A stretch of 64,000 nt of DNA from an uncultured Nitrososphaerota archaeon (GTDB lineage Archaea > Thermoproteota > Nitrososphaeria > Nitrososphaerales > Gagatemarchaeaceae). Shown piece by piece: positions 978 through 53,587 of this stretch. Positions within the stretch are counted from its first letter, which is position 1; every line of letters begins with the position of its first letter. The notes below the pieces were generated by a model that saw only the letters and a list, made by a program, of their open reading frames with translations, had not been told where the DNA came from and made no database searches. A program made the position numbers and the translations under genes. The stretch is taken from contig OY969807.1 in assembly GCA_963703285.1 (NCBI GenBank), positions 1,664,001 to 1,728,000 on the forward strand, written 5' to 3'.

Positions 978-1001
978 TTCGGACAAAACTATTAGTCAAG
1001 G
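978..1001 (+). promoter_or_regulatory. Copy of the dispersed 24-bp motif (TTCGGACAA-AACTAT-TAGTCAAGG)
   Basis: Matches consensus TTCGGACAA-N6-TAATCAGAA; precedes the pseudogene at 1036. Confidence 0.75.
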
Positions 1002-1035
1002 TGAGGCTCTTGAACACTTTCGAGGTTCTTCTCGA

Positions 1036-1191
1036 ATGAACACCCAGCCAACTCGAAGCTTCACTCACCTCACCATAGCAATTGTCGTAGCGGAGGGTGG
1101 TAATTGGGGCTGTCATCCTTCCTCGTCCTACCTCGGGACTGCGACTGCGACAACCGTGACTAGAACCTCGACGACAACCCACGCCGACTAG
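1036..1191 (+). pseudogene. Remnant of a membrane-anchored surface-protein gene
   Basis: MNTQPTRSFTHLTIAIVVA, a frameshifted hydrophobic segment, then SSYLGTATATTVTRTSTTT and an early stop. Confidence 0.55.
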
Positions 1192-1248
1192 CTGCTGCAT
1201 CCAGAGGTCATGTCGGATGGATATCCCATACCTTTCATGAGTATGGAA

Positions 1249-1458
1249 CTACTGCTTGCTCGACAAGTAGCCCCAGAGCATTACCCCGACAAGCATGACC
1301 ATCGACCCCGCCAGACCGGTCACGAACGCGCCCGCCATGTCTGAGCTGAGGCCGACCCCCTGAAACGAGTTGATGATCGACGGTGCCACGAGCCAGGCGA
1401 CGAAGCCCAGAGCGTACCCAATCAGCCAGAATACGAACAATGCAGCTTTTCGACCCAA
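1249..1458 (-). CDS. Small two-TM membrane protein
   Basis: 69 aa with two clear hydrophobic helices. Confidence 0.7.
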   Translation of the reverse strand: MGRKAALFVFWLIGYALGFVAWLVAPSIINSFQGVGLSSDMAGAFVTGLAGSMVMLVGVMLWGYLSSKQ

Positions 1459-1752
1459 TCTTGATTACCGATACATGATGGGACGGGAATGGAGTAAATG
1501 CAACGAGAGTTGAATCCCTTAACCTTCAGGTCGAATTTCTGGACGACCCGGATAAATATTTTGCATCAGACGAGCCGCATTTATCCGGTGACCGAAGGTC
1601 CGAAAGCCGGTCGCACGAATTGCCGATTGATCAAAGAGTCGTCTTGATTGTCGTCCTTACTGCAATTGTAATAGTCGTGGTTAGTGTATGGAAGGCTAGG
1701 GCTCGGGGTTCTTCTTAATAATGTGAGAGACTTGTGATAGAGGTGAAAGAAA

Positions 1753-2031
1753 GTGTCGAAAAACAAATTTGAAATCGGAGAGAAGGAGAAGCACTCGCTC
1801 ACAGTCGATGCCGACCAGGTTATGAAGCGAATCAGTATCGAAGTGGATGGCCAGAAGGTCATTGACGAATCCCTCTTCTCGCTTGGCGCGAAGAAGTTCG
1901 CGTTCGATGTCGGGAGTTCAGAGGTCCACAAAGTCGAAGTCAACCTCGGAATGACGCGCTGGGCATTTGGGAGAAAAATCAGCGTGCTCGTAGATGGCAA
2001 GCCCGCACAGAGCTCAAGTGTGGGTAAGTAA
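1753..2031 (+). CDS. Hypothetical small beta-rich protein
   Basis: 92-aa ORF with SD-like GAGGTGA upstream and an internal repeat (EKHSLTV/EVHKVEV; IEVDGQ/VLVDGK). Confidence 0.65.
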   Translation: MSKNKFEIGEKEKHSLTVDADQVMKRISIEVDGQKVIDESLFSLGAKKFAFDVGSSEVHKVEVNLGMTRWAFGRKISVLVDGKPAQSSSVGK

Positions 2032-2052
2032 AGCGGGGCACTTGCCATCAGT

Positions 2053-2212
2053 GATGCCGCCGGATGAGGTCGCGTTGAGCGACCCTGACAAGCAGAACGC
2101 GGCTGTAATCGAGGTGATCGTCAAGGCCGGAGGGCACATTCAGTCCGTGACGATAGCGGGAGCCTCACTTGAAGACGTTTATCTGAAGCTGGTGAGGGAA
2201 GGGGGAAGCTAG
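2053..2212 (+). pseudogene. C-terminal remnant of an ABC transporter ATP-binding subunit
   Basis: DPDKQNAAVIEVIVKAGGHIQSV...SLEDVYLKLVRE is the typical ABC ATPase tail; no Walker motifs upstream; directly precedes the permease. Confidence 0.7.
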
Positions 2213-2217
2213 GAACC

Positions 2218-2949
2218 GTGCGGCTCTCCAAGTCCTGGATTATTGCAGCAAAGGACCTCAAGACTCTCGGCAAGAAGAAGAGCATAATCTATTTGGTGGC
2301 CTTCATTCCGCTTTTCGTCGCCATTCTCATCCCCACAGTCATAGGCTACGTCGGCCAGAGGAAGACCCCTGCCGAGCTGGTGGTCCTGCTGCCTGCGTTC
2401 CTCTTCTTCTACGTCATTCTGGGCTCGTATCTCTCCACTCCGATAGCATCCTACACCATCGCTGGAGAAAAACTCGAGAAGAGCCTCGAGCCGCTGCTTG
2501 CGACGCCAACGACGGACAGCGAGATTCTACTCGGAAAGGGCATAGCTGCCTTCCTTCCGCCGCTGGCTGCGGTGCTGGGAGGGTCCGCCCTCTTCATGCT
2601 TCTCATGGACCTGACCACCAAGGGCAAGCTTGGTTACTACTACTTCCCGGACTGGAATTCGGCCATCGTCATACTGTTGCTTCTTCCGCTCGCGTTGTTG
2701 ATGAGCGTGCAGGTGAATGTGATCATGTCCTCGAAGGTGACCGACATCAGGGCTGGACAACAACTCGGGGCGCTAACAATCGTTCCATTCATAGGGCTGT
2801 ACGTCTCCGGAGAACTGGGCCTGATCAACCTCGGAGACGCCAGCAACCTGCTGATAATCGCGGGAGCCTTGGTCGTGGTGGACATGCTGCTCTTCTTCGT
2901 CTCGACAGCGACCTTCCGCAGAGAGGAGATACTGACAAAATGGAAGTAG
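2218..2949 (+). CDS. ABC-2 type transporter permease
   Basis: IAAKDL start, IAGEKLEKSLEPLLATP..SEILLGK motif, six TM segments. Confidence 0.9.
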   Translation: MRLSKSWIIAAKDLKTLGKKKSIIYLVAFIPLFVAILIPTVIGYVGQRKTPAELVVLLPAFLFFYVILGSYLSTPIASYTIAGEKLEKSLEPLLATPTTDSEILLGKGIAAFLPPLAAVLGGSALFMLLMDLTTKGKLGYYYFPDWNSAIVILLLLPLALLMSVQVNVIMSSKVTDIRAGQQLGALTIVPFIGLYVSGELGLINLGDASNLLIIAGALVVVDMLLFFVSTATFRREEILTKWK

Positions 2950-3084
2950 GCGCCTCAATTTCAAGACCTGAGACACGAACCTACTGTTTGAGCCATTCCT
3001 TGAGCGTCCTGGGCATAATTCTCAATTGAGGGAGAGCATCCTATAGACTTGACCGGGAATCGGGCGAAGGCGAGAGCCCGCTGA

Positions 3085-3414
3085 CTACCCGCTCTTCGGG
3101 GAAAAACCACGGCGGGCGTTCATCTGGGCAGCCATCCTGAAAACAACGGGCGCCATACCTAAAGCGACGATCATCGCCACGATGAAGTTCTCGAGCGCAG
3201 TAACCGGGCCGACGCTAATCGTAACCGAGCCAATAACCAGACCGATGACTCCTCCGGCCACGAAGAAAGCCATCCACGCTTCAATGAATCTCCAGTACCC
3301 CAGATGCTGCAGCTTCGGGTAGAGCCAATTGAAGAAAATGACTATGCTCACGACTCCTACAGGAATGAGAATCAGCAATGCCTCCAATGGATCCAACAGC
3401 AACTTACTAACCAC
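3085..3414 (-). CDS. Hypothetical membrane protein
   Basis: 109 aa with three hydrophobic helices. Confidence 0.65.
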   Translation of the reverse strand: MVSKLLLDPLEALLILIPVGVVSIVIFFNWLYPKLQHLGYWRFIEAWMAFFVAGGVIGLVIGSVTISVGPVTALENFIVAMIVALGMAPVVFRMAAQMNARRGFSPKSG

Positions 3415-3516
3415 CTTCCAATGGCGAACCCAAGGATATCAACCTAGCTACAAACGCTGTCGCAGACCACAGGCAATCGGGAGTGCCTATTACCGCGGGT
3501 TTCGGTACAGGGGTCG

Positions 3517-3999
3517 ATGCCAAGCTACACCATCCACTTTGGCTTCAGCCAGCGGTTCCCCGTCCCAGCCGCCGAGGCGTACGAGTGGTGCACCGACTAC
3601 GACGCCGGCGACATCGCGCTCGAAGGCATGAAGGGTGCCCGACAGGTAGAGTGGACCGACGATGCCACGGTAATACTGACGGACACGGTGGAGGCCGGCG
3701 CCGTGAAGACCACGAAGGTCAAGGTCGTCCGGCTCTACCCGGCGCTGCTGATGTGGACCAACACGAGGATTTCCAGCCCCGGGAAATATTCCCAGTTCAT
3801 CTACCAGATCGTCCCCGAGGGGAAGAACGCCTCGCGCCTCGACTACAACGGCGCTCAGGTCGAGGAAGGGAAGAGCGTTCCGTCACCGTCCCAGGCTGCC
3901 GCCATGGCGGAGAAACTCACGGAGGAGGACTCCCAGGCGTGGATCAAGCTCGCGGCGGCGATGGAGAAGGATCTCGCCCGGAAACCATCCCGTGCGTGA
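3517..3999 (+). CDS. SRPBCC/START-fold-like protein
   Basis: FPVPAAEAYEWCTDY N-terminus, YQIVPEGKNASRLDY strand pair, C-terminal helix W..LAAAME. Confidence 0.6.
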   Translation: MPSYTIHFGFSQRFPVPAAEAYEWCTDYDAGDIALEGMKGARQVEWTDDATVILTDTVEAGAVKTTKVKVVRLYPALLMWTNTRISSPGKYSQFIYQIVPEGKNASRLDYNGAQVEEGKSVPSPSQAAAMAEKLTEEDSQAWIKLAAAMEKDLARKPSRA

Positions 4000-4020
4000 C
4001 TAGGTTCTAGGCTCGGTGAC

Positions 4021-5037
4021 CTAGGTGGTGCAACTAGGGAGTGGCGACTGTCTTTGCTTGCCTAGCCAGCCGAGAATAGAGTTGGCGCCCTCTTCGTCGA
4101 GCTTGGCGTCCGGCACATTGTAGTGAGCGGCGACGTATTGCGCCGTTAGTTCTTCGACGGGTAGCGCCTCGTGCTTTAGCACGTGATTTGCGTTCTCCGG
4201 ATAGGCGAACGAGACGGTCGTCTTTCCCGCCGTCGCATCTTCGAGCGCCTTCCCGTCCACCTTCCAATTGACCTGGATGTCTTTCTTGCCGATTACGACC
4301 AACACGGGATCATCGACCTCTGCGATGTGCTCTGGGAGACTGTAGGCCCATAGTTCCCTGGCGAACGGCAGGTTGTTTGGATTCTCGAGGCTGCGCAGAA
4401 GCACTTTCAGACCTTCCGGAAGAGACGGGTCCATGGTCATAGGCATGTTGGCCAGGAACTCCGCGATGGCGTCGTCATAGTGTCCAATGACTGTCTCTGC
4501 TTCGGGCAGAGACTTGCCCTGCTCAAGGAGCTGACTCCGAGCCACTTCGCCAACAGCCCTCCCGGGGGCACCGGTCAGTACCATTCCTCTGAAGCGGTTG
4601 TTCTTCGTCCGTAACTGGTAGTTCACGGCATGAATGGCGCCCTCGCTGTTGGTGAGCGCGAAAAGGTGGTCCCCGTCGACATTCCTCTCGGAGAGGATCG
4701 TTTCGACCGCGCCAGTTAGCTCGTCCAGGAATGTTTGCATCCCGACTTTTCCGGAGATTTTGGGCAGATACTCCTTGACGCGAGGTCCCGAACCGAGCTT
4801 GTCATAGCGTAGGGTGACAAAGCCCCAACTCGCCAGAGACTCCGCCAGTATCTTGGCGGTGCCGTTCGACCCGGGCAGAAGAGGGGAGCACCAGTTCCTG
4901 TCGGTTGGACCACTTCCCGCCAGTAAAATAACCGCCGGACGAGGCGCATTGTTTGAAGGTGCGGTCAAGGTTCCGTATACCGGAATATCAAGAGCCTTCC
5001 ATGTCACTTCTTTATCCTCAACGGACGCGGCGCTCAT
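4021..5037 (-). CDS. Alpha/beta hydrolase
   Basis: LAGSGPTDRN, LRYDKLG, nucleophile elbow TNSEG, GKKDIQV, ANHVLK. Confidence 0.85.
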   Translation of the reverse strand: MSAASVEDKEVTWKALDIPVYGTLTAPSNNAPRPAVILLAGSGPTDRNWCSPLLPGSNGTAKILAESLASWGFVTLRYDKLGSGPRVKEYLPKISGKVGMQTFLDELTGAVETILSERNVDGDHLFALTNSEGAIHAVNYQLRTKNNRFRGMVLTGAPGRAVGEVARSQLLEQGKSLPEAETVIGHYDDAIAEFLANMPMTMDPSLPEGLKVLLRSLENPNNLPFARELWAYSLPEHIAEVDDPVLVVIGKKDIQVNWKVDGKALEDATAGKTTVSFAYPENANHVLKHEALPVEELTAQYVAAHYNVPDAKLDEEGANSILGWLGKQRQSPLPSCTT

Positions 5038-5103
5038 GTTTCTTCTTCCAATTCGTCTCGCTGTTCGACAGCTATATAGAAATGAGTAAAGTGCTTCCCC
5101 CTG

Positions 5104-5604
5104 ATGAAACTACTCCGGGTACTGGACGCTCCCAGCACCACTCTGGTGTACGACCTCCACAACCAGATGATACTGAAGGAGCTTGTGGAATCGGAGGGCT
5201 CCGTGACTGAACTCGCGAGAAAGCTGAACATCCCGATGGTGACGCTCTGGAAACGGATGCAGAAACTTCTGGCTGCTAACTTGGTGGAGCTTTCGAGGGT
5301 CAAGAAGTCAGGCAACCTCGAGAAAAAACTGTATCGGGCGACTGCGGCAAGATTCGTCCCTGCGCAGCTCCTGAGCTTCAAACCGAAGGACCGTCACCTC
5401 AGGGAGGCATCCGAGGTTTACTCGCAGATTCAGAATATGGGTGTGAAGCTCCTGACGCAAACATACGAGATACCCGAGGATGCGGATCCCTCTGACTATG
5501 CACTGTACGCAAACTTGCTTGCATTCGTACAGGTCAGCAGGATGCCGGACTTTGAGAGGAGAGTCGCTGAACTTCAGAAGAAGCTCTCCGAGTACAAACC
5601 CTGA
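5104..5604 (+). CDS. ArsR-like winged-helix transcriptional regulator
   Basis: SVTELARKLNIPMVTLWKRMQKLLAANLV...EKKLYRATA; divergent from the hydrolase. Confidence 0.8.
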   Translation: MKLLRVLDAPSTTLVYDLHNQMILKELVESEGSVTELARKLNIPMVTLWKRMQKLLAANLVELSRVKKSGNLEKKLYRATAARFVPAQLLSFKPKDRHLREASEVYSQIQNMGVKLLTQTYEIPEDADPSDYALYANLLAFVQVSRMPDFERRVAELQKKLSEYKP

Positions 5605-5678
5605 CGATATGCGAAGGGTCGTTAGTCAATAAATACTCCCTCCATTTTCTGCCAAAAGCATCGGTTGTACGATTACTA

Positions 5679-7694: not shown

Positions 7695-8360
7695 ATGAAA
7701 TCTGCAACGCATAGTGCAGAGGTACCTGGCCCCAAACCGAAGGACAGCCCTGAAGTGCCTAGGGTACCCGACTTCGGAACCTACCATCATTCATCAATGA
7801 GAGAGTCCGTGAGCACGAGAACAAAGATCAGGGCCATCTTCGCGGAAGCCTTTGAAGCTCTGCCGTTTGACAGGAACGAGCGCTTACGAATCTTAGACAT
7901 GGGATGCGGACTCGGCTTCCTCTCGACCGTCTGTGCCGAGCGCTATTCCCGCGCCCTCATCACGGGTGTCGACACCTTCGCCCACTCGAGCCTTAAGGGT
8001 TCCAGTATCGCGAGGGCTAAAGAGAATTCTGAGATTCTAGGGTTCTCGGACAGGATAACGTTCGAGGAGGGAGACATTCTAACCGCTGACTTCAGACGAA
8101 AGACGTTCGAGCTTTTCGTCTCCAACCTCGTGTTCCACAATCTCGGAGAAAGACGATTCGAAGCATACCGGAGGGTAGCCTCTTGGATGCCCCCGGAAGC
8201 TTTTTGCTTGCTCGGTGACCTATTCTTCGAGCACAAGGCCGATCTAAAATTCCTCTCGACGATTTTCAACACCATCAAAGAGGTAAAACCCGCGAGAAGC
8301 TTGAGCGAGTACAGCCTCTTCGTGCTATCCGGGGCTCCCGCACCGATTCGTGTAACTTAG
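7695..8360 (+). CDS. Class I SAM-dependent methyltransferase
   Basis: ILDMGCGLG motif I and VSNLVFHN; start taken at ATG 7695 rather than the longer ORF. Confidence 0.8.
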   Translation: MKSATHSAEVPGPKPKDSPEVPRVPDFGTYHHSSMRESVSTRTKIRAIFAEAFEALPFDRNERLRILDMGCGLGFLSTVCAERYSRALITGVDTFAHSSLKGSSIARAKENSEILGFSDRITFEEGDILTADFRRKTFELFVSNLVFHNLGERRFEAYRRVASWMPPEAFCLLGDLFFEHKADLKFLSTIFNTIKEVKPARSLSEYSLFVLSGAPAPIRVT

Positions 8361-8389
8361 GTAGCTAACAATTTTCTGTATCCTAGTTA

Positions 8390-8413
8390 TCCGGACAAAG
8401 GTATTAATCGGAA
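8390..8413 (+). promoter_or_regulatory. Copy of the dispersed 24-bp motif (TCCGGACAA-AGGTAT-TAATCGGAA)
   Basis: Part of a ~55-bp repeat shared with 946-1001; ends 26 nt before GTG 8440. Confidence 0.75.
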
Positions 8414-8439: not shown

Positions 8440-9240
8440 GTGGAATCTCAACGAAGAGCCATCGGGAAAACAGCGGCAGCCGTAATCATCGTTGCCGTAA
8501 TCCTGGTCGGTGTGACAGCCGTAGAATTACTGACCACTTCCAATTCGTTCTGCGGTCAGCCAGCTTATCTCGTCACACTCGCCTCAAAGGTGGAGCAGAC
8601 GCAAAGCTTCGCCCAGCAGTCGCATGGGTTGAGCTACGTGCTCGCATCGGGCAATAATCAAACCGAGACTGGAGAGGCCAACGGAAACTCAATCTTCTAT
8701 CCGCCGGAGACGGACCTGATCTTCTACTCATACGGTACCGCTTCGACTCCGGCTTGCCCCAACCTTGACACCAGGGGCGTCGTCGGAGCACTCTGGATTC
8801 AAGTCCCAGTCAATATCAACGGTTCATACAATCTCATGACCATGTCGGTCTACTTCACGCCCGGAGTCCTCACCAACAACACGGTACTCACTACAATAAC
8901 CAACAACACAACTTCCCTCCTTGACTATTGTAATAGTACTCAAGGGACTGGCCTCTACGTCACCGTGCTATCGGACGCAGGTCAGCCAATACAAGGAGTT
9001 CAGGTCGGGGGCACCATGGTAGGTCAGATGAATGGCGGAATGTGCTACTATGGCATAGGCCCCTACACCACGAACTCGACGGGCAGCGTCCTCATCACTC
9101 CAAACATCGGCAGCTACTATCTGCTCACCGTGCAGTATCAGGGCAAGAACTACACCGCCAAGGCGCCGATCGAACCGATGTTAACGACCTACGTGACCCT
9201 GAAAGTTCCCTCAGGCAACGTCACTATCACCGAAGAATGA
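8440..9240 (+). CDS. Exported surface protein with N-terminal anchor and C-terminal beta-sandwich module
   Basis: RRA-IG..hydrophobic N-terminus (class III signal-like), many N-x-S/T sequons; last 97 aa ~80% identical to the C-terminal module of 49281..50486. Confidence 0.85.
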   Translation: MESQRRAIGKTAAAVIIVAVILVGVTAVELLTTSNSFCGQPAYLVTLASKVEQTQSFAQQSHGLSYVLASGNNQTETGEANGNSIFYPPETDLIFYSYGTASTPACPNLDTRGVVGALWIQVPVNINGSYNLMTMSVYFTPGVLTNNTVLTTITNNTTSLLDYCNSTQGTGLYVTVLSDAGQPIQGVQVGGTMVGQMNGGMCYYGIGPYTTNSTGSVLITPNIGSYYLLTVQYQGKNYTAKAPIEPMLTTYVTLKVPSGNVTITEE

Positions 9241-9345: not shown

Positions 9346-9684
9346 CTATATGGCGAGGCCGAACTTGGCCACGAACGCCTCGATCTCCTTTACCCGATTA
9401 ACGAAGTCGAGGCCCCTCGTGGTGAGCGTGTATGTCTTGGTGGAGCCGTCCCGCTTCTCCTGTATCAGTCTCTGCGAGACCAGCTCTCTCAGATACTTGG
9501 CCGATCTCCCCCCTGAGAGGTTCGCATAGGAGACTATCTTGGATGACTTGCTTGGGCCTTCGTCCCTTATGGACTGGAGGATGTCGAGACGTATCTTGAG
9601 GGCTGTCCTGGGGCGCTCATCCGGCGGCACCGCCGCTTTGGCAGGAGGAGGTTGATGGGGAGACCGAGCCCGGGAGGCTGACAC
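9346..9684 (-). CDS. Winged-helix transcriptional regulator
   Basis: RTALKIRLDIL...SKIVSYANLS...KYLREL...YTLTTRGLDF. Confidence 0.8.
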   Translation of the reverse strand: MSASRARSPHQPPPAKAAVPPDERPRTALKIRLDILQSIRDEGPSKSSKIVSYANLSGGRSAKYLRELVSQRLIQEKRDGSTKTYTLTTRGLDFVNRVKEIEAFVAKFGLAI

Positions 9685-9835: not shown

Positions 9836-9859
9836 TTCGGCCATAACTATTAATCAAGA
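9836..9859 (+). promoter_or_regulatory. Copy of the dispersed 24-bp motif (TTCGGCCAT-AACTAT-TAATCAAGA)
   Basis: Ends 25 nt before GTG 9885. Confidence 0.65.
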
Positions 9860-9884: not shown

Positions 9885-10373
9885 GTGGAAGCTCGACCGA
9901 GAGCAAGGTCCACATTCGACCAAATCTTAGTCATTACCATAGTCGTCCTTTCGGTCGCGGTGGTCGTCATAGGCGTCGGATTGTACATCACCACCGGCCC
10001 ACACCCCTCCACGCTCCCCTGCTTCGAAACCGGGTTCATCGGAACGCTGTACGTCCGGGTGGTCGCGGACGGCACGAACCAGTCTGTCTCTGGGGCCAAA
10101 GTCACCGCAGATATCTCCAACTACTGCGGTTCTGACGAGACCATTGACATGGGTGTGACCAACTCCACGGGGTACTCGAGCGGATGGAGCTGGTCGGCTA
10201 ACTATACCATGTCTGTCGTGTACGTTAGCACGAGCTACACGTTCGCTGTCCAGGTCTCTGGAGGCGTGGACATAGCGACACTTAGCGTTCCGTCTGGCGT
10301 CGTGGTAGAGATTACGACTGGGGTTGGATCCAACAGCACCGCCAATTCTACCACCACAGTCACCGCATATTAA
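9885..10373 (+). CDS. Membrane-anchored surface protein, diverged copy of the same beta-sandwich module
   Basis: TM anchor, then LYVRVVAD..QSVSGAKV...TNSTG...TLSVPSG. Confidence 0.8.
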   Translation: MEARPRARSTFDQILVITIVVLSVAVVVIGVGLYITTGPHPSTLPCFETGFIGTLYVRVVADGTNQSVSGAKVTADISNYCGSDETIDMGVTNSTGYSSGWSWSANYTMSVVYVSTSYTFAVQVSGGVDIATLSVPSGVVVEITTGVGSNSTANSTTTVTAY

Positions 10374-10391: not shown

Positions 10392-10415
10392 TTTTCATTA
10401 ATAGTTTTGTCCGAA
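10392..10415 (-). promoter_or_regulatory. Orphan inverted copy of the 24-bp motif (TTCGGACAA-AACTAT-TAATGAAAA)
   Basis: Points into the 3' end of 9885..10373; no ORF follows it. Confidence 0.7.
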
Positions 10416-10463: not shown

Positions 10464-11360
10464 TCAATGGACCCACACGCCCACGAGTACGACGAATCCG
10501 AGCAGCATGGGTATTGGCAATCCCGGGAGAGCAGGATGCTTCCCTGCCCTTAGGATGTAGAACGTGATTAGGGCCCCGAGCACGACCACCGCCATGACCA
10601 ATGCTCCGGTGAGAGCGCTCAGCTCTAGACCCACCATCGTGATTATCGAGTAGAAGACGATATCTCCGAGTCCTATCCCCGATTCGCCTATGTGGGCCAC
10701 GAGCATCTCTCCGATGCTGACTCCGTGCCTCTCACTCGTATCGCGCTTGTCGTCTTCTTTAATGTCGGACACCATCTTGCCGAGCGGCCCTCTCAGCACA
10801 GCGTACAGATCCCAGACGGCCATAATCCCACAGAGCGCCAGGAGGGTCACCAAGGGGAACAGGAGGACCATCAGCATCGCCGTGCCAGTCCCCAGCCAGA
10901 CCTGGAACGGAAGCCTGAGCGCCGAAGACCACAGCCTAGAGATTCCCGACTTGCTGGATAGAAGGAAGGCGACGGCGAGCAAGATTGCAATCGCCACGGC
11001 CGCGTACCACTCGATCCACCAGTAGGCCACCAGCGCAATCAAGAACGAACTGGTCGCGAATGCCGCCCCCGTGATGAGCGGGAGGACCCACGTCTTCCTC
11101 TTCTTCACCAGATAGGCCATGACGAACGTGAAGGCGATTATGGGGACGACATAGATCAGGGCGACGCTGAACTCCGAGGGAGCACTCGTCCCTGCCACAC
11201 TGTACTGAAGGTTGTTGCCGGTTATGTACTGCACGAGCGGGTCGTTCACTTCGTAGAGCACTGCGGCGAGCACCGTAAGGACAAGCACGAACAGGACGGG
11301 CGGGAAGACGTCCGCGAGCACTTTCGCGGCTGTCGGCCTGCCATCTGTCTCGGGGTTCAT
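10464..11360 (-). CDS. Presenilin-family (GxGD) intramembrane aspartyl protease
   Basis: WDLYAVLRGPL, IGLGDIVFY and PALP motifs; ~9 TM segments. Confidence 0.88.
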   Translation of the reverse strand: MNPETDGRPTAAKVLADVFPPVLFVLVLTVLAAVLYEVNDPLVQYITGNNLQYSVAGTSAPSEFSVALIYVVPIIAFTFVMAYLVKKRKTWVLPLITGAAFATSSFLIALVAYWWIEWYAAVAIAILLAVAFLLSSKSGISRLWSSALRLPFQVWLGTGTAMLMVLLFPLVTLLALCGIMAVWDLYAVLRGPLGKMVSDIKEDDKRDTSERHGVSIGEMLVAHIGESGIGLGDIVFYSIITMVGLELSALTGALVMAVVVLGALITFYILRAGKHPALPGLPIPMLLGFVVLVGVWVH

Positions 11361-15680: not shown

Positions 15681-15959
15681 CTAGCCGAGGCAAACGACCC
15701 GAGCCCCCGACGATGGGAGCCACCAGAGGTAATCTCCTCTGAGGAGGAGGACCACCCCAGTACGGAGCGACGTATACGAAGCCGAGGCGAAAATCTCCGA
15801 CGTGGGAGCCGGAGTAACTAGGATTCCGCCGTAGCACGAACCATGCTGCTCGTACAGGCCAGGAGTGGGTACCCGCATCGGGACGACGGGAATGAAGAAG
15901 AAGGCCAGAACAACGAGGATGCAGAGTCCGGCTATCGTGGCCGCTCTTCTACGCCTCAT
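15681..15959 (-). CDS. Small membrane protein (FxxPVV...SxSY family)
   Basis: TM helix followed by FFFIPVVP and FASASY; similar to 40801..41073 and 53194..53532. Confidence 0.7.
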   Translation of the reverse strand: MRRRRAATIAGLCILVVLAFFFIPVVPMRVPTPGLYEQHGSCYGGILVTPAPTSEIFASASYTSLRTGVVLLLRGDYLWWLPSSGARVVCLG

Positions 15960-15984: not shown

Positions 15985-16008
15985 GTCTGATTAGAAGCTT
16001 TGTCCGAA
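15985..16008 (-). promoter_or_regulatory. Copy of the 24-bp motif (TTCGGACAA-AGCTTC-TAATCAGAC)
   Basis: Ends 25 nt before ATG 15959. Confidence 0.7.
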
Positions 16009-38571: not shown

Positions 38572-40311
38572 TCATCCAATATTTGGAGCACTAGTGTCTC
38601 CGGCCGGCGAGATGAGCTTCTTTCCCTTCTCGTTCAGCTTCTTTATTGCTCCATAGAGCGTATCCAGCTTCTCGTAATACCAGCCCGGTTGTCCACTTCT
38701 GCTTGGGACGAATTTCTCGTCGACGAACCGAAGGTACTCAAGGACATAACCGGCCACCTCGCGTTTGACGATCAAATACGACATCACTTGAGGGAGAATC
38801 GTCCGGAGTACGCCCGAGTTCGCATTGTACTCCCATCTTGTTTTAGTCACCGCATCCCCTCTGCGAGCTAGGTTCACGGTTCCCTCTCCGATAATCTCCA
38901 TCACCTTCACGCAGAAGTCCCGGTTGGAGTTGGTCACGTTGAGCTGCGGCCGATAGAAGTATCCCCTACTGTACGCCGCGTGGATAACCTTGGAGAGGAA
39001 TATCAATCCTTCTCCATCTATCACCCCTGCCAGCCAAGAGCTTTCCTCTTTAGTCAATGTCCTAGTATCCGTCGCTCTTCCACCCCGCCCTCTGTTCTTC
39101 AGGCTCTTCGGCAGCGCAAGCATAGCTGCCATCGTCTCCGGCGACGGGTCCCTCCCTTTCTCGTTCGTCCGCTTGAGCGCCATGTAGAGTGAGTCAGCTT
39201 TCTCGTAGTAACCCGCCGGAACTTCCATGACGCCGATGATTGGATTCGCATCGACGTAAGCAAGGTACTCCAGCATCCTCTCTGCCGCCTCCTTCTTGAT
39301 GAGCAAATGAGGCACCAGCTGCGGCAGCAAACCGCGAAGAACCATGCCTGCTCCCCGATAGCACCATCTATCCTTCCAGTCAAGACGCGTCTCTTTCTGG
39401 AAGTTCACCGACCCCCTTCCGATGACCTCCCTCACCTTCCTCGCAAACTCCTCATTGGAGTTGCTGAGGTTGATGGCGGGGACGTAGGCGAATCCGCGTC
39501 TTCCTTTGGCAGCAGATCCCCTGTTCAACTTCGTTATGAAGATCGAACCCTCTCCATCGATGACTCCTGCCAGCCATTGCCCCTCAACCGCACTCAGTTG
39601 CCTAGGTGGCCCATCCAAGAGTTCCTCTCCGTTCGCTTCATCAACCAGCTTGGATTTGGCGAACCTCCTCCACGACGTGATGTGAATCCCATCCACGAGC
39701 TCGCCCACCGGCTTCTTCGTCTCCACCTGGTCGACGCCGAGTATGGAGAGCTTGTGCACCTCCGAGGGTCTCACCTTGTCGGCGTACTTCACGGGCACAT
39801 AGACAATAAGAGACCGGAAGCCGGTCGTGTAGACATAGCTTTCGAACCCAAAGTCACCATCGACCTTCCCGGATACCCAGTAGAGCTTCTCTGCCTCCAG
39901 CCTCGTTCCTTCTGGGCTTCTGAGCTTCCGCCAAGGGAGTCTGAAAATCAGGTTCGAGCCGAGTTCGCCGTTCTTCTTCGTGTATGTGTGGCCATAGGCC
40001 CTCGCCTGGACTACGCTTGGGTGTGATTCAACCTGCTCTGGCTTCCTCGGCTCCGGCTCTGTTTGGCCATGGGGCTCGTTGTTCTCGTCTCCCGCCTGTT
40101 CTTTCTCAAACCCTCCGAGCGTCGTCTGGACTGTCTCTTCAGACCGTTCGGCTTCCGTCTTACCTTCCGTCCCTTCCGCCCGAGACCCACCATCGCTTCG
40201 AGCCACATCAAAGGCTGGCTCGCCGCCGACCGCCGGGGACGCTACCTCCTTCTCTGAGACCCCTGTTCTCTCCTTGGGGGTCCCTGTCTGGACAGAATCC
40301 TCTTGGTCCAT
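38572..40311 (-). CDS. Free-standing double-LAGLIDADG endonuclease-like protein (copy 1)
   Basis: Two WLAGVIDGEG(S/L)I motifs, each followed by NSN..F..KV.E.IG.G.V...W.Y...L..LP...L..K.E.A; acidic disordered N-terminus; no intron or intein context. Confidence 0.9.
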   Translation of the reverse strand: MDQEDSVQTGTPKERTGVSEKEVASPAVGGEPAFDVARSDGGSRAEGTEGKTEAERSEETVQTTLGGFEKEQAGDENNEPHGQTEPEPRKPEQVESHPSVVQARAYGHTYTKKNGELGSNLIFRLPWRKLRSPEGTRLEAEKLYWVSGKVDGDFGFESYVYTTGFRSLIVYVPVKYADKVRPSEVHKLSILGVDQVETKKPVGELVDGIHITSWRRFAKSKLVDEANGEELLDGPPRQLSAVEGQWLAGVIDGEGSIFITKLNRGSAAKGRRGFAYVPAINLSNSNEEFARKVREVIGRGSVNFQKETRLDWKDRWCYRGAGMVLRGLLPQLVPHLLIKKEAAERMLEYLAYVDANPIIGVMEVPAGYYEKADSLYMALKRTNEKGRDPSPETMAAMLALPKSLKNRGRGGRATDTRTLTKEESSWLAGVIDGEGLIFLSKVIHAAYSRGYFYRPQLNVTNSNRDFCVKVMEIIGEGTVNLARRGDAVTKTRWEYNANSGVLRTILPQVMSYLIVKREVAGYVLEYLRFVDEKFVPSRSGQPGWYYEKLDTLYGAIKKLNEKGKKLISPAGDTSAPNIG

Positions 40312-48020: not shown

Positions 48021-49136
48021 CTATGAAAAGAACGCCAGATACTGGAAGACGGAGAACAGCCCGGCCAGGCCTATGCACAGCACGACGTAGGTTACCTCGA
48101 GCTTCCTTCCCCTCAGCAGCACCGAGTAGCTGAGGAAGACCGGGAAGGCCGGCAGCAACAGCCTCGGGACGGAGAGGGCGACGAAGCCGACCCAGAAGAG
48201 CAGCGGCAGGGTCACCGACAGGCAGTACACGCACAGGAACACCCTGTGCTTGGCGCCCGTCTTGAGAAGGTACAGGGCGCCAAATAGATAGAAAGCCTCG
48301 AAGCAGATGTTCCTCACCAGCCAGTAGGGCGGGGTGAGACGGAGCCCGTCGGCGGCCCAAGGTTGGCAGGTGTATGAGCCGGGGGAGTTGACGCAGAGCA
48401 GGTAGTAGGCCTGCGTCAGCGGGTTCGCGAGTTTCACCCCCCACGGCGCTTCCAGCCTGATGAGGTCGAGATAGGCTCCTGTCTCGGCCCTGAGCCATAG
48501 CACTATCAGCGCACCCGTAACCAGAGGAAGGCCATAGAAGAGCAGGTCCCTCGGGCGCCGCCGGGTATCCAGGAGCGCGACAAGGAAGGAGGGGAGCGTC
48601 CAGGCGAGGTTGAAGAAGGTGAGGATGGCAGCGCTCACGGTAGCCGAGGCAGAAAGCACCCTGTCCTTCATCAACAGCAAAATCGAAGAAGCGAGGAAGA
48701 CGAGGACGACCACGTCTGAATAGGGAATCGTGGTGAAGAGCAGGTAGGTCGGGAAGAGCTCCGCCAGCAGGGCCGTCCTGTAGCCGAAGGCCTTGTACAG
48801 CAGCACCGGGAAGACGAAACTGAGGGCGTTCGTCACCACGTAAGCCGAGACCCACGCGCTGCCCAGCGCGTAGTAGACCGCCCTGATGAGCGCCGGATAG
48901 AGCGGAGAGAAGACATAGGGCGCTGACGGTCCGTATCCCTGGGTCGCGATGATCTGGTAGAAATCGCCGTCCCACTTTGTCGCCATCAGGTGGAGCAGGT
49001 CGGGCGAGGGGTCGAAGGGATAGACCGCGATGAACACGACCACCTTGCCGACCGCCAGAAGGAGGATGAGACGGAGTACCGGGGAAGCCCAGGCGTTCCG
49101 GAGGAGGTGCAGGCTTCGCCCTCCCTTGGAGTCCAT
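48021..49136 (-). CDS. GT-C membrane glycosyltransferase (PIG-V-like mannosyltransferase)
   Basis: KWDGDFYQIIATQGY...FSPLYP.L, multiple TM segments, SVPR...FP. Confidence 0.82.
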   Translation of the reverse strand: MDSKGGRSLHLLRNAWASPVLRLILLLAVGKVVVFIAVYPFDPSPDLLHLMATKWDGDFYQIIATQGYGPSAPYVFSPLYPALIRAVYYALGSAWVSAYVVTNALSFVFPVLLYKAFGYRTALLAELFPTYLLFTTIPYSDVVVLVFLASSILLLMKDRVLSASATVSAAILTFFNLAWTLPSFLVALLDTRRRPRDLLFYGLPLVTGALIVLWLRAETGAYLDLIRLEAPWGVKLANPLTQAYYLLCVNSPGSYTCQPWAADGLRLTPPYWLVRNICFEAFYLFGALYLLKTGAKHRVFLCVYCLSVTLPLLFWVGFVALSVPRLLLPAFPVFLSYSVLLRGRKLEVTYVVLCIGLAGLFSVFQYLAFFS

Positions 49137-49230
49137 GCCTTACCCCTCCCTGGCTCGGGCATATCTCCATTCAACAACAATCGTCTCGTCCTGAAAGAGT
49201 CTGGAGCCGCTAAGGGTTCTGATTGAACTG

Positions 49231-49254
49231 TTGGGACAAAACTATTAATCAGAA
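49231..49254 (+). promoter_or_regulatory. Copy of the 24-bp motif (TTGGGACAA-AACTAT-TAATCAGAA)
   Basis: Ends 26 nt before ATG 49281. Confidence 0.75.
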
Positions 49255-49280
49255 ACAAGAACCGCCGCAATCGAGTTGGA

Positions 49281-50486
49281 ATGACGCAGCAACGGCAGGG
49301 AATAGGGACGACCTTGATTGTCGTTGCCCTGGTCCTTGTCATCGTGGTGGGGACGATAGGCTTCGTAATGCTCAACCTTCAATCGCTTCCGCTTCCACGG
49401 ACCACCAGCGACTTGTACTCCCAATCCTCGACGTCCTTGGCGTCCACGACCGGACCGTCAGTGTCTTACTCGACAACCTCGTCTTCGGACCTCAGACTGC
49501 AGGTTACGCTGAATTCCAGCAGCATCCAATCGCAGGAGGAGGTCGCGGTCCAGATAGAGGTGCTCAACCTGCAGAGTCAGAACGTCTCCCTCACGGTCGT
49601 TCCCAACCAGAACATCTCGTCGTGGAACGCAGCGGACTTCTTCTGCAGCGTGAACCCCAGTCGCTCCCTCGTGGGCTTCGCCCTCTTCAGCGGGAACTTT
49701 GCAAGCGGGAACATCTCGGCGGCCGGTTCTCCGCTGCAGCTCGCTGCGTCGTCTGTGGTGTTACCGTGCCTCTACAGCCTGCCCCTGAACGACACCACGT
49801 TCCTTCCGGGCAGCGACAAGACCGTGTCCTTGAGCTACTACGGCCAGACCGAGGAGCCACCCTATCAGGTGACGGCGGAGGTGAACGCGTCCACCGGTTA
49901 CTGCGGCGAATCTCTCACGGCTGGGGCCTGTCAGGGGACCTCGGGGATCCTCGGCTACTGGAGCGCCGGTCTCGTAGGGAACTCGTCGCTGGGCTCCAAT
50001 GACTTCACATACCTTCCTGCCGGAGACTACACAATAGCGGCGATGGACGACTGGGGCCAGACTGTCTACGCTCACTTCGACGTGACGCCTGCCGCGATTA
50101 CGACGACCTCAGCATCGAGCGATTGCATCATCAGCGCGGAGGGCACCGGCTTCTACGTGACCGTGCTCTCCGACTCGGGCCAGCCGATACAAGGAGTCCA
50201 AGTCTCGGGCACCCGGGTCACCCAAGTGAACGACGCGACCTGCCAGCAGGGCATAGGCACGTATGTCACGAACTCCACCGGCAGCGTCCTCATCACCCCG
50301 AACATAGGCAGCTACTACCTGCTCTCCATCATGTACCAAGGCAAGAACTATACAACCAAGGCGCCGATCGAGCCCATGACGACCACCTACGTGACCCTCA
50401 AGGTCCCGTCGGGCAATGTCACAATCAGCGAAGTCTTCGAAGGAGGCTGCCAGACGAACTCCGAAGGAGTCAACTGCCCAGGCTAG
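49281..50486 (+). CDS. Two-module exported surface protein
   Basis: QRQG-IG.. class III signal-like N-terminus; first module related to 52021..53013, second to 8440..9240. Confidence 0.88.
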   Translation: MTQQRQGIGTTLIVVALVLVIVVGTIGFVMLNLQSLPLPRTTSDLYSQSSTSLASTTGPSVSYSTTSSSDLRLQVTLNSSSIQSQEEVAVQIEVLNLQSQNVSLTVVPNQNISSWNAADFFCSVNPSRSLVGFALFSGNFASGNISAAGSPLQLAASSVVLPCLYSLPLNDTTFLPGSDKTVSLSYYGQTEEPPYQVTAEVNASTGYCGESLTAGACQGTSGILGYWSAGLVGNSSLGSNDFTYLPAGDYTIAAMDDWGQTVYAHFDVTPAAITTTSASSDCIISAEGTGFYVTVLSDSGQPIQGVQVSGTRVTQVNDATCQQGIGTYVTNSTGSVLITPNIGSYYLLSIMYQGKNYTTKAPIEPMTTTYVTLKVPSGNVTISEVFEGGCQTNSEGVNCPG

Positions 50487-50531
50487 CAGCTCCGGCCTCG
50501 GGGCCCACGCAATTCGCATACTGAAGCCCTG

Positions 50532-50552
50532 TTCGGACAAAACTAATCGAGA
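50532..50552 (+). promoter_or_regulatory. Orphan copy of the motif with a 3-bp spacer deletion (TTCGGACAA-AAC-TAATCGAGA)
   Basis: Downstream of 50486; no sense ORF follows. Confidence 0.65.
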
Positions 50553-50575
50553 TCGAGTTCGCCGTGTTGGGAATC

Positions 50576-51019
50576 TTAGTCAGGGGTGATCTTAATCGCC
50601 TGCGTGATATCAACCGCGACGCTCTGCGAAGTATTTGCCGGTGCTATATCGAAAAAGACAAGATAGTAGGAGCCTTTGGCTAAAGACAAGTTCAGAGCGA
50701 CCGAGTTCACATAACCACTCGAAAAGAAGTAATCAGTCGGAGGCTCATACGGCCCCACGTACCTGAACTGCGTCGAGTTCACTACGAACACCTGAATCTG
50801 AAAGTTCGCCTTTAGTGAACCCGAGACATTCGAAGCTTGGGAAACGGAGAAGGGGATGAATGCATCACTCTCAGGGTTAACGTGCACACTCGTCCCCTGG
50901 GCGGCTATCACACCCGAATTTGCATTCCAGCTCGGTAGGAGCACAAGTCCCAGCAAGGTCAAGGCGAGCAGCATCACCGAGAAGAGAGCGGCCCGCCCCA
51001 TATGCGACCTCAGGTTCAC
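50576..51019 (-). CDS. Small exported beta-sandwich protein
   Basis: Signal/TM segment, VFVVNSTQF, GSYYLVFF. Confidence 0.75.
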   Translation of the reverse strand: MNLRSHMGRAALFSVMLLALTLLGLVLLPSWNANSGVIAAQGTSVHVNPESDAFIPFSVSQASNVSGSLKANFQIQVFVVNSTQFRYVGPYEPPTDYFFSSGYVNSVALNLSLAKGSYYLVFFDIAPANTSQSVAVDITQAIKITPD

Positions 51020-51875
51020 TGGTTCCCACCCTTCTCCTGTGAAGGTCCTCCCGAAGCAAGGGCAGAGGCCGGGTTCACCGGTGGGAAATTCGCTCCGCCT
51101 TTATGTCCAACGACCTCCCGCACATAGTCGAAAAATTCACTGGTCACCAAGACGAGAAGAGCAGCAACGGCTATCCAGAACACATAATCAATCAGGTAGT
51201 ACCCGGCGTTCACCTGGACGCAACTGATGACGCCGAACGTAGTGCTGTCGCAGTAGTTGTAAGCCACGAATGGATTGAAGGGAGAATGGCCATTGAACAG
51301 CTCGGGGTAACCCGAAGAGGAATTGTCAAGCCCGAATGTCAGGAGAATCAGCGTCCCCACTGGAACAGCACCCTTCAAGATGCGGGACAACGACGCCGTA
51401 ACATTCTGCCTCGCCGGCTCAATCCAGCTGGGCATTGCATAGATCATGGCGCCGACCAGAGGCGTCCAGAAGACCACATTGTACCAGATGGTCGAACCGT
51501 CGTAGTATGGACTGCTCGTGCAACTGCTTCCACCGGTAAAGCCCGTCGGTGACGTCGCGTTGGGAATCTGGATGTTGGTACACGAATAGGTAGTCTGATC
51601 TCCTTGTATAGGCGAACCGTTCCCGGCGGTGGCAATGTAGATCAAGAGTATCAGGGAGGGGCGAGGATAATGGTCATCGTGAGGTAGGTCAGGCGCCTCC
51701 CCTTTGGCAGCCCCAGTCCAGCGATGACCAGGGCCAGACTGGCAAGGTAGGCGACCGCCCCTATGAAAAACGGGCCGAACCCCGACGGGTCGGAATAGTA
51801 GACTACGAAGGCGCTGAAGAGTGCTAGAGCGACCAAGGTCCACTCGAAGCCACGAACGTCGCTGTGCGAAGTCAT
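51016..51875 (-). pseudogene. Frameshifted multi-TM membrane protein
   Basis: TM-rich frame MTSHSD...TIILA stops at 51651; TM-rich sequence SLILLIYIAT continues in another frame, break ~51658. Confidence 0.7.
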
Positions 51876-51977
51876 CTGCCATCGGTTGAACCCCACGCGG
51901 TAGGATAAAACACGATTGTGTAGTTCCACTACCTGAGAATACATCTGCCGTGCTAAACAATCGTCTCCACTGGGTCG

Positions 51978-52001
51978 GTCGGACAAAACTATTAATCAGA
52001 A
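51978..52001 (+). promoter_or_regulatory. Copy of the 24-bp motif (GTCGGACAA-AACTAT-TAATCAGAA)
   Basis: Ends 19 nt before GTG 52021. Confidence 0.78.
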
Positions 52002-52020
52002 AAGCGCGCTCGGCCGAATC

Positions 52021-53013
52021 GTGAAGCGCAGGACGCTAGTCCTGTTCGTGGCCGTCGTCACCGTCGCAGCGGCCGCGCTGCTGGCGTCGACGTTCGTGCT
52101 GGTGTCGGGCCTCACGCTCCATGACCAGGGCGCCGTCCGCTTCGGTGCCTCGCTCAACGCTACTACGGTCGCCCAGGCTCAGGCGGTGAGGGTCTACGTC
52201 GACGACTGGAACACGCTCGACTTCAAGAACTCGCTCCCGCTGTCGAATTCGCAGATGGCCGCAGGCCTCTCCTCCGGCCCGTGTGGTGGCCCCTATCCCG
52301 GCGGGATTGCGGTGTACAAGGGGGAGTACGACATGAGCAACGTCTCCTCGGCGACGCCCCTCCCGTTCTATGCCCCTGGGACCTACTTCTGCACTGAGCT
52401 ATCCTTCGCGAACTCGTTCACCTTCGGCCCGCACCAGAACGTCACCGCCTACTTCGACCTCGACGGCTACTACGTGACAACGAACGCTACCGCGGGCGCA
52501 TTTTCATCATATGTGCTCCAGCCGTACGCGCCCGGCGTCTACACGGTCGTCGCCGGCGACCCGCTGGGGCACACCAGGGTCATGTACTTCCGCGTGACCG
52601 GGACGACGGGGACGGCTGTAGCCCAGGAGCGAAGCGGGCCCGTGAGCACCTTCCCCGCGACGTGGCTAAACCCGTGCGACACGAGCGCATCGGGCAACGT
52701 CACCACGGCGGTGTACCTAGGGTTGAACGGAAGCTCTGCCTTCGATCACATCAACCTCGGCCAAGTCTACTCGCAGATCGTCAACTCGTCCGGGTTCTCG
52801 TTCCAGTCCGTTGGGCGGGGATGGGTGGTCTCGACGTGGTACGAGATCGGGGGCACCGGCGATGGCGCGAGCAACGGGCAGGTCGTGGTCTCGTTCATAC
52901 TCATCAGCGACGGCGTGCCCTCGGGGTACGCCAACGCCTACTACAACCCGGCGAGCGGGACGGTGGACGGCGTCACGTCAGGGGCGCTCCCGACGGCGAG
53001 CTGCGCGACCTGA
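52021..53013 (+). CDS. Two-module exported surface protein
   Basis: Signal/TM segment; SLNATTV..AVRV...G.A.Y.G.Y...N.S.A.PL...PGVYTVVAGD.LG...MYF.VT matches the first module of 49281. Confidence 0.85.
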   Translation: MKRRTLVLFVAVVTVAAAALLASTFVLVSGLTLHDQGAVRFGASLNATTVAQAQAVRVYVDDWNTLDFKNSLPLSNSQMAAGLSSGPCGGPYPGGIAVYKGEYDMSNVSSATPLPFYAPGTYFCTELSFANSFTFGPHQNVTAYFDLDGYYVTTNATAGAFSSYVLQPYAPGVYTVVAGDPLGHTRVMYFRVTGTTGTAVAQERSGPVSTFPATWLNPCDTSASGNVTTAVYLGLNGSSAFDHINLGQVYSQIVNSSGFSFQSVGRGWVVSTWYEIGGTGDGASNGQVVVSFILISDGVPSGYANAYYNPASGTVDGVTSGALPTASCAT

Positions 53014-53082
53014 GAGTAGAGCGCGGCTAGGTCGGATTGACCAGAAAAGGAGGTACTCGGCTGGAACCTGCGCTGCCTCCTA

Positions 53083-53154
53083 GGCCCTCCTCATCCCGCT
53101 CCAGGAGCCTGTCAGCGCCGGCGGTGGCGATCATCTTATTCTCCCTAAGGTACG
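53083..53154 (-). pseudogene. Internal fragment of a second rpl10e allele
   Basis: Aligns to 56445-56514 (LRENKMIATAGADRL..GMR) with mostly synonymous differences and indels. Confidence 0.85.
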
Positions 53155-53193
53155 GGTTCCTGTATTGGGTTCATTGCGCCTTCGTGCTTGGCT

Positions 53194-53532
53194 TCATACA
53201 GGCGTCCTGATTTCATTCCCGATCCGCTGCATCGCCTGCCCGCACATCGTACCAGGATTCCCGACCATCACGCAGTACCTGTAGCTCAGAGGTCCAATCA
53301 GCAAAGGCGACATGTCGACCACCCTGACGGCGCCGACGCCGAGACACGCGTACATCACCGATGCAGAGGAGGAACCTGGTGTGGGGTGCCACGTCGCGCA
53401 TCCTGGTCCAGCGAACAGTGTAGAGCTTTCGCACACCGGGGCGGAGACGGAGATCGGCACAATCGGAGCAAGGAAGAGCACAAGGAAAGCGATGGGCGCC
53501 GCCAAGCTGAGGGCTATTCTTGTGGCTCGCAC
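53194..53532 (-). CDS. Small Cys-rich membrane protein (FxxPIV...SxxY family)
   Basis: TM helix, FLAPIVP, SASVMYACLGVG. Confidence 0.7.
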   Translation of the reverse strand: MRATRIALSLAAPIAFLVLFLAPIVPISVSAPVCESSTLFAGPGCATWHPTPGSSSASVMYACLGVGAVRVVDMSPLLIGPLSYRYCVMVGNPGTMCGQAMQRIGNEIRTPV

Positions 53533-53563
53533 CAGAGAACCACCGTAGGTTTCACGACGCGCC

Positions 53564-53587
53564 TTCTGTAATACGTGTTTGTCCGAA
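53564..53587 (-). promoter_or_regulatory. Copy of the 24-bp motif (TTCGGACAA-ACACGT-ATTACAGAA)
   Basis: Ends 31 nt before the start at 53532. Confidence 0.65.

Follow-up and report, generated by a model that had tools for sequence, protein, structure and literature searches.

Is a short sequence that recurs beside the accessory genes of an archaeon a site at which those genes are exchanged, or a promoter from which they are transcribed? The question arises from a stretch of 64,000 nucleotides, here called the window, which covers positions 1,664,001–1,728,000 of a single-contig genome of 2.25 Mb (G+C 60.6%). An earlier note had listed nine copies of a 24-bp pseudo-palindrome in it, at the boundaries of accessory genes, and had proposed either a cassette recombination site or a dedicated promoter of a regulon. 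Our analysis favours the second. We consider it likely that the motif is a composite archaeal promoter for a surface-protein regulon, not a recombination site, given that its copies are co-oriented with the genes that follow at a narrow distance, match the B recognition element (BRE) and TATA box of the genome's general promoters in a fixed register, are conserved genus-wide and are linked to the operator of a putative transcription factor. For a family of membrane-anchored winged-helix proteins, the chances of being the cognate factor of this regulon seem to us about even. The tyrosyl-tRNA synthetase shares 83% identity with that of an uncultured Nitrososphaerota metagenome-assembled genome and 74% with that of Ca. 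Gagatemarchaeum stordalenia, and the host, judged by these identities, is a non-ammonia-oxidising soil thaumarchaeon of the Ca. Gagatemarchaeum-related group. This group is uncultured and without genetics. In a term search the word 'promoter' is absent from the family-defining genomics paper (PMC10640624), and none of the literature matches listed describes the motif or its regulators, the motif letters themselves not having been searched.

Motif copies in the window are confined to two accessory parts that flank a housekeeping block at 17–46 kb (PolD DP2, SHMT, thymidylate kinase, XPD-like helicase, topoisomerase, GcvT/H, AglB/STT3, eIF2a, L44e, PCNA, primase, GINS, TFS and RpoL). As had been stated for housekeeping blocks, no copy lies there: a position weight matrix (PWM) gives no match of at least 13 bits in 17–46 kb. 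Searching the window with the first consensus at up to 3 mismatches returns five matches (8390, 10392(-), 15985(-), 49231 and 51978, where (-) marks the reverse strand) compared with 0.04 expected, and none of 100 shuffles reaches five. A related sequence is present at all nine listed positions, of which only these five fall within 3 mismatches of that consensus. The copies, with their PWM scores, are as follows.

978–1001, forward strand: 34.7 bits, the TATA being weakened to TATTAGT; 34 nt before an anchor-protein gene (1036–1191) that is truncated or frameshifted and whose product matches that of a relative's motif gene at its N-terminus (74% over 19 aa).
8390–8413, forward strand: 31.3 bits; 26 nt before gene 8440–9240, whose Ser/Thr-rich product (266 aa) has an RRAIG anchor at its N-terminus and matches no Pfam or NCBIfam family.
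9836–9859, forward strand: 34.9 bits; 25 nt before gene 9885–10373 (162 aa, N-terminal anchor).
10392–10415, reverse strand: 40.7 bits, an orphan of near-perfect sequence; antisense into the 3' end of 9885–10373 and 48 nt past the stop codon of a presenilin-like gene (10464–11360).
15985–16008, reverse strand: 26.3 bits; 25 nt before a small anchor-protein gene (15681–15959, 92 aa).
49231–49254, forward strand: 38.5 bits; 26 nt before gene 49281–50486 (401 aa, RQGIG anchor).
50532–50555, forward strand: 14.7 bits; decayed, its 5' arm intact but its TATA part 3 nt short as read by eye.
51978–52001, forward strand: 38.2 bits; 19 nt before gene 52021–53013 (330 aa, N-terminal anchor).
53564–53587, reverse strand: 6.9 bits, in the chance range; an exact 10-nt 5' arm with the TATA shifted by 1 nt, 31 nt before a small anchor-protein gene (53194–53532).

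Seven of the nine end 19–34 nt before a gene for an exported or membrane protein, as first described, with the reservation that the gene after 978 is truncated or frameshifted. The copy at 53564(-) draws its support from the 5' arm and the context; the product that follows it has an N-terminal anchor and is similar, at 48% over 27 aa, to the product of a motif gene at 1334 kb. The two copies that had been reported to lack a downstream gene, 10392(-) and 50532, do lack one. After 10392(-) there is only an open reading frame (ORF) of 42 aa, and a search with 104 motif-gene products found no remnant of a motif-family gene there and neither a gene nor a gene remnant after 50532, its one match being the truncated gene after 978. 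The former copy is either a promoter relic or an antisense promoter. For the latter, a related genome (G010) offers a comparison, having a full motif directly after a related gene, where it drives a further gene. Copies 978 and 8390 share about 35 further nucleotides upstream (944–977 and 8355–8389; TTAGGTAGCTAA...TTTTCTGTATCC), and since the two sequences are found together nowhere else in the genome this similarity, private to the two copies, is a local duplication of the promoter region. The degenerate tenth copy proposed near 60800 has a score of 8.2 bits, which does not set it apart from chance, although the gene after it encodes a signal peptide.

Across the genome, the PWM scan that had been proposed as a check finds 27 sites of at least 20 bits. 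The excess over simulated genomes vanishes only at about 8 bits and below (247 real versus 253 simulated at 6 bits, 120 versus 110 at 8), with 47 versus 21 at 12. Logos of these 27 copies and of 80 copies from relatives define the full element as 26 nt, g-TTCGGACA[A/T]AACTATTAATCA-n-R-AA. The related copies come from 20 fetched pieces of seven related genomes, which were chosen by motif density with a 16-mer covering positions 4–19. Because positions 0–3 and 20–25 are conserved in the relatives despite lying outside this search pattern, and because the flanks carry close to 0 bits, the element has sharp limits and a length of about 26 nt; between gene families only these 26 nt are conserved and the spacer to the start codon is not. 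The view that the arms are conserved and the centre varies did not survive the larger sample: over the 27 copies of the genome the central AACTAT is conserved as much as the arms (A in 25, A in 22, C in 20, T in 24, A in 23 and T in 24). The internal pseudo-palindrome is weak, given that positions 22–23 of the 3' arm carry little information (0.1–0.7 bits), and only 4–5 of the 6 outer positions can pair. GGACAAA by itself was ruled out as a general promoter word: it occurs 150 times, mostly without a TATA after it.

The placement of the copies is strongly directional. In the forward direction, 24 of the 27 sites have an ORF of at least 50 aa that starts 0–60 nt downstream, and 21 of these sites lead to an N-terminal hydrophobic segment, whereas the reverse direction, used as a control, gives 12 ORFs and 2 hydrophobic N-termini. 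Relatives repeat this pattern, with an ORF at 72 of 77 sites and an anchor at 66 of 77 in the forward direction compared with 33 and 5 in reverse. The motif usually ends 18–36 nt before the start codon of an N-terminally anchored protein, and 49 of 66 motif-to-start distances in relatives fall within 24–36 nt. In a home-made gene set, an N-terminal anchor is enriched among motif genes, being present in 15 of 17 compared with 331 of 2143 other genes (Fisher 9e-11).

A promoter explanation for this spacing can be examined against the general promoters of the genome. An expectation-maximization search of upstream regions gives AAA-N3-TTWWAT(a) as the general profile, with a TATA hexamer that starts about 31 nt before the start codon, a distance that points to mostly leaderless mRNAs. 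Learned from 1337 motif-free upstream regions, this profile falls on the motif in one and the same register at 24 of the 27 sites, with AAA on motif positions 8–10 and the TATA hexamer on ATTAAT. It scores a mean of 7.5 bits on the motif sites, between the 50th and the 75th percentile of all genes.

The element is restricted to the genus. With up to 1 mismatch, the 16-mer is found in 16 of 18 genus genomes, in up to 39 copies and often with T at position 9, and in none of 12 genomes of other families of the order; a reversed-pattern control gives 0–1 matches per genome. The genomes are kin, which inflates every cross-genome count. The copies in relatives again precede anchor-protein genes, some with N-termini like those of the window, and relatives' genes with N-termini like that of the 49281–50486 product are preceded by the same motif. 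Conserved genes across the motif-bearing species are only about 64–91% identical in DNA. Genes from the accessory parts of the window map, at 64–91% identity, to scattered contigs of relatives, and the islands are poorly syntenic; in pairwise alignment after the 49281 gene the similarity is confined to the motif itself.

Most products of the downstream genes share a layout: a short basic N-terminus (RRAIG-like or TR-x-Y-like), a hydrophobic stretch of 20 residues and a Ser/Thr-rich body that contains Cys. BLAST sorts the mature parts of the 27 downstream products into 20 clusters (one with 6 members, one with 3, and 18 singletons), and the motif is therefore not merely inherited within one duplicated family. 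None of the window's motif genes has a Pfam or NCBIfam family, and ESM Atlas returns for their products only hypothetical Nitrososphaerota clusters with scores of at most 0.85. Named members among the motif genes are a PQQ_2 beta-propeller and a PMT_2 (GT39-like) protein mannosyltransferase. To us the N-termini bear some likeness to class III or Tat signals, and a pilin nature of the products is possible. Pfam Pilin_N gives no match, and the genome has no more than a sub-threshold prepilin-peptidase match, next to a T2SSE ATPase at about 101–105 kb and far from the motif islands. Separately, the C-terminal approximately 97 aa of 8440–9240 and 49281–50486 (8944–9235 and 50143–50434) are 77% identical in DNA while the N-terminal parts differ, which points to possible domain shuffling among surface proteins.

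Two of the motif genes in the genome, and one gene of the window, encode winged-helix proteins that may act as regulators.

Genome 491,286–492,071: winged-helix motif gene, membrane-anchored product.
Genome 1,333,046–1,333,660: winged-helix motif gene, membrane-anchored product.
Window 9346–9684, reverse strand: HTH_45/Sso10a-like gene for a small soluble winged-helix protein, within a motif island, with an ordinary promoter of its own.

The membrane-anchored proteins open with an N-terminal transmembrane helix and a stretch rich in Ser and Thr; then come a second hydrophobic helix, the sequence RGRMRSRW and, at the C-terminus, a winged helix. Their annotation falls below curated cut-offs throughout (Pfam HTH_45, E 0.002–0.007; NCBIfam ArsR/SmtB, E 9e-4), and no HAMP or sensor domain is found in them by Pfam. 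An AlphaFold model, for which the alignment used 20 of 21 family references because one locus with a masked stretch was left out, shows two long helices followed by the winged helix, with a mean predicted local distance difference test score (pLDDT) of 73 and values of 85–90 over the winged-helix domain; the best Foldseek matches in PDB are MarR, ArsR/SmtB and Sso10a regulators (E about 2e-4 to 1e-3, probability 1.0). With this query, all 18 genus genomes contain the family and none of the 12 others does. The soluble protein has clear matches (Pfam HTH_45, E 8.7e-14; NCBIfam Sso10a_fam, E 2.1e-12) and is an alternative candidate regulator.

One tie between the anchored family and the motif lies in the family's own promoters. 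A motif variant (TTCGGACAAAAGTATTTAT or CTCGGAATAAAGTATTTAT) is present upstream of the winged-helix gene at 20 of 26 loci, 18 of them with the motif 11–30 nt before the start; the other six gave no motif, the ORF start not having been reached or the locus being cut. In these promoters an inverted copy of the motif's 5' arm stands 4 nt to its left, the two together making a 10+10 inverted repeat. Over 23 of the 26 loci and the 491-kb promoter of this genome, the complementarity of the repeat averages 7.2 of 10 compared with 2.0–3.6 at six other registers, and 21 of the 24 promoters reach at least 6. The two halves co-vary, TCGGAC being paired with TCGGAC 13 times and TCGGAA with TCGGAA 7 times, with TCTGAC types accounting for 3. 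The genes also lie inside the islands: eight winged-helix paralogues are found in 7 of the 20 motif-island pieces (319 kb) compared with about 0.56 expected from the family's copy numbers, and those pieces had been chosen by a pattern that the winged-helix promoter variants fail (2–4 mismatches).

We propose the following mechanism. The block of about 26 bp would combine a regulator half-site, TTCGGACA, with a BRE/TATA core (AAA-ACT-ATTAAT) and a short tail (CA-n-R-AA), and would define a genus-specific regulon of about 25 genes here and up to about 40 per genome in relatives. Its putative members are the Ser/Thr-rich anchored proteins, the GT39-like mannosyltransferase, the beta-propeller protein and the candidate regulators themselves. 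The trans-acting factor would be a membrane-anchored, MarR/ArsR-like winged-helix protein with a predicted order of first transmembrane segment, Ser/Thr-rich external loop, second transmembrane segment and cytoplasmic winged helix. As a dimer it may bind the full palindrome of its own promoter and thus autoregulate; at regulon promoters it would contact a single half-site beside TFB/TBP, helping or blocking them, and the state of the cell envelope would thereby be coupled to the expression of surface proteins. By analogy with ArnR/ArnR1 of Sulfolobus we lean towards activation via recruitment, although repression by occlusion would be equally compatible with the sequences. A dedicated TFB/TBP pair may act together with the regulator.

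Several observations weigh against this interpretation, some of them against the promoter class and others against its proposed regulator. The gene calls behind the anchor enrichment are home-made and crude, and the loci in relatives are a sample picked for motif density. Compared with the modal general promoter, the motif has its TATA about 6 nt more distant from the start codon, and motif-driven transcripts would probably begin about 6 nt before the start codon, with leaders of that length. Two cytosolic enzymes, a MetE-like protein (32.1 bits) and TyrRS (20.5 bits), are encoded by genes that a motif copy precedes, and no gene follows three copies that are good or once were: 10392(-), the decayed 50532 and one at genome position 1,660,951. 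Concerning the regulator, only one of 10,000 re-pairings reaches the observed total of co-variation, but the test ignores the shared ancestry of the promoters and so gives no true probability. Motif count and paralogue count are correlated over 19 genomes (rho 0.81), but larger genomes also have more of both (rho 0.72 and 0.64), and a genus-specific gene family co-occurs with any genus-specific motif. The palindromic operator of MarR/ArsR type is found in the regulators' own promoters and not at regulon promoters, which have a single half-site, so that dimer binding as at palindromes is not simply transferable to them. A half-site for a regulator does not by itself account for how invariant the TATA part is, and a membrane-tethered factor must still reach DNA.

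The copy at 1,660,951, 3 kb before the window, scores 36.1 bits with no plausible ORF within 130 nt downstream, and could mark a non-coding transcript or another relic.

The invariance of the TATA part would be expected if the motif were a promoter class read by a dedicated pair of TFB and TBP paralogues, in which the extended conservation reflects the narrow specificity of alternative general factors and no gene-specific regulator is needed. The genome encodes five TFB and three TBP paralogues, the whole BRE/TATA part and not the upstream arm alone is near-invariant, and the general profile fits in a fixed register. However, this explanation accounts neither for the co-varying palindrome that the 5' arm forms in the winged-helix promoters nor for the position of the winged-helix genes inside the islands, and this analysis linked none of the TFB or TBP paralogues to the motif. 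We regard it as unlikely in its exclusive form; it is compatible with a regulator. That the element acts as RNA, as a 5' leader element or a small-RNA target, was considered for its closeness to start codons, with nothing specific in its favour. Four motif-to-start stretches fold no better than shuffles (z +0.8 to +2.4), Rfam gives no match, the sequence after the motif is not conserved and a TATA-like core stands at promoter distance from the start codon, which leaves this explanation a negligible share. Simple inheritance, in which an ordinary promoter was copied often with duplicated genes and without any common regulation, finds some footing in the paralogous downstream genes (the clusters of six and three) and in the upstream sequence shared by copies 978 and 8390. 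It is nevertheless very improbable, considering the 18 singletons among the 27 products, the restriction of conservation between families to the 26 nt without the spacer, and the retention of the motif across species as divergent as these.

The cassette reading, in which the motif is a Xer/dif-like or integron-like recombination site for surface genes and its promoter a by-product, could draw on the flanking, noted earlier, of 9885..10373 by inverted copies and of 49281..50486 by direct copies, on the orphaned or decayed copies 10392(-) and 50532 and on the poor synteny of the motif islands between species. With all copies at hand, however, the arm-spacer-arm geometry dissolves, as the centre is conserved and 3' positions 22–23 are not, and the sites always lie 5' of a gene, co-oriented and at a narrow distance. 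No recombinase or transposase is found among the window ORFs scanned, in agreement with what had been stated, and the genome has one PF00589 tyrosine recombinase, at 1,627.8 kb, about 36 kb before the window and outside the islands. A perfect inverted duplication of 3,315 bp (1,882,206–1,885,520 and 2,039,889–2,043,203, about 154 kb apart), which holds a group II intron ORF (reverse transcriptase, maturase, HNH) and a motif-driven gene for a 188-aa anchor protein, ends 146 nt beyond the motif it carries, and the one scar in the window that resembles an insertion is a repeat that stems from rpl10e rather than from the motif. The orphan copies have the look of relics left by gene turnover: the gene after 978 is frameshifted, part of the TATA of 50532 is gone, and 10392(-) points at the 3' end of a convergent motif gene. 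We thus find this reading unsupported and highly unlikely; its probability is kept slightly above zero because divergence is too great for breakpoints relative to the relatives to be read at base level. Just outside one copy of the 3,315-bp duplication lies a TFB gene.

If the composite-promoter reading is true, a 26-bp sequence predicts, throughout a genus, which genes of unknown function take part in a single surface or envelope programme, and it names a testable regulator family whose operator code can be read from sequence. The module could also serve as a promoter and operator pair for future work in Thaumarchaeota. A wider idea, which we hold unlikely, is that a diversifying family of tethered winged-helix factors and its co-varying half-sites, each joined to a standard TATA module, might be an archaeal counterpart of bacterial extracytoplasmic function (ECF) sigma/anti-sigma envelope signalling, in which the 26-bp module would be a portable plug-in that enrols newly acquired secreted-protein genes and whose numerous identical copies would be substrates for homologous exchange, shuffling surface genes and leaving relics and scrambled islands behind.

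Several other features of the window were observed. Scans for tRNA genes and with Rfam gave no matches in it. Positions 1163–2957, with an ABC-2 permease gene and its neighbours, are 88–91% identical to places in two related genomes, in which the segment recurs several times, while the adjoining genes are about 70–80% identical to relatives; the segment may be recently spread or multi-copy. About 60 nt of the ribosomal protein L10e gene (56235–56534, reverse strand) are repeated at 53082–53146 and 56446–56504, in direct orientation, 3.3 kb apart and at 90% identity. Between the repeats lie three accessory genes, namely the small motif gene, one that is TatC-like and one for a protein of 491 aa whose function is unknown; the arrangement resembles a scar from an insertion in or beside rpl10e. 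In the called ORF of L10e the N-terminal third is missing. Two reverse-strand ORFs, 38572–40311 (579 aa) and 56849–58567 (572 aa), have LAGLIDADG homing-endonuclease domains as their sole Pfam matches, apart from an additional weak HTH_20 match in the second, which adjoins the odd rpl10e gene; both could be free-standing homing endonucleases or intein-related. Directly beside motif copies lie the presenilin/signal-peptide-peptidase-like gene 10464–11360 (reverse strand, E 2.4e-10) and the weakly TatC-like gene 53639–54307 (reverse strand, E 1.8e-4, below cut-off). It is pure speculation that an intramembrane protease beside the regulon could matter to a membrane-tethered regulator.

Among known systems, ArnR and ArnR1 of Sulfolobus acidocaldarius offer a close functional parallel. 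They are membrane-bound one-component activators of surface-structure genes whose sites are inverted repeats upstream of BRE/TATA, such as TCGAC-N5-GTCGA in the flaB promoter (PMC6396743). The likeness lies in a helix-turn-helix domain combined with two transmembrane segments, in paralogous pairs and in surface-structure promoters as targets (PMC6396743). However, ArnR has the helix-turn-helix first, followed by HAMP and sensor domains and two C-terminal transmembrane segments (PMC6396743), whereas here the transmembrane segments are N-terminal and the winged helix C-terminal; in addition, the half-site here abuts BRE/TATA in a module that is near-invariant over about 25 promoters. The NCBIfam ArnR model gives E 0.015 for the soluble window protein only, with no match to the membrane-anchored protein scanned; the resemblance is one of function only, with no sequence relationship found. 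Xer/dif and integron attC sites resemble the motif in length (about 24–28 bp) and in some dyad symmetry at outer positions, but it is without two well-conserved inverted arms, its centre is conserved, it is placed only 5' of genes and co-oriented with them, and no recombinase is nearby.

MarR and ArsR/SmtB proteins act as dimers on palindromes. The anchored family resembles them in its predicted C-terminal fold and in a palindromic operator in the regulator's own promoter, and differs in its membrane anchor, its external Ser/Thr-rich loop, sequence matches below curated cut-offs and target promoters in which a lone half-site is joined to the TATA box. An archaeal regulon motif next to BRE/TATA is also known from Thermococcales, the glycolytic motif of TrmBL1/Tgr. 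With it and with the EarA sites of fla promoters, the element shares a short cis-acting sequence, a fixed place at the core promoter and a lineage-conserved gene set. Those motifs are separate from the TATA box, which is left free to vary, whereas here half-site, BRE and TATA form one 26-bp block.

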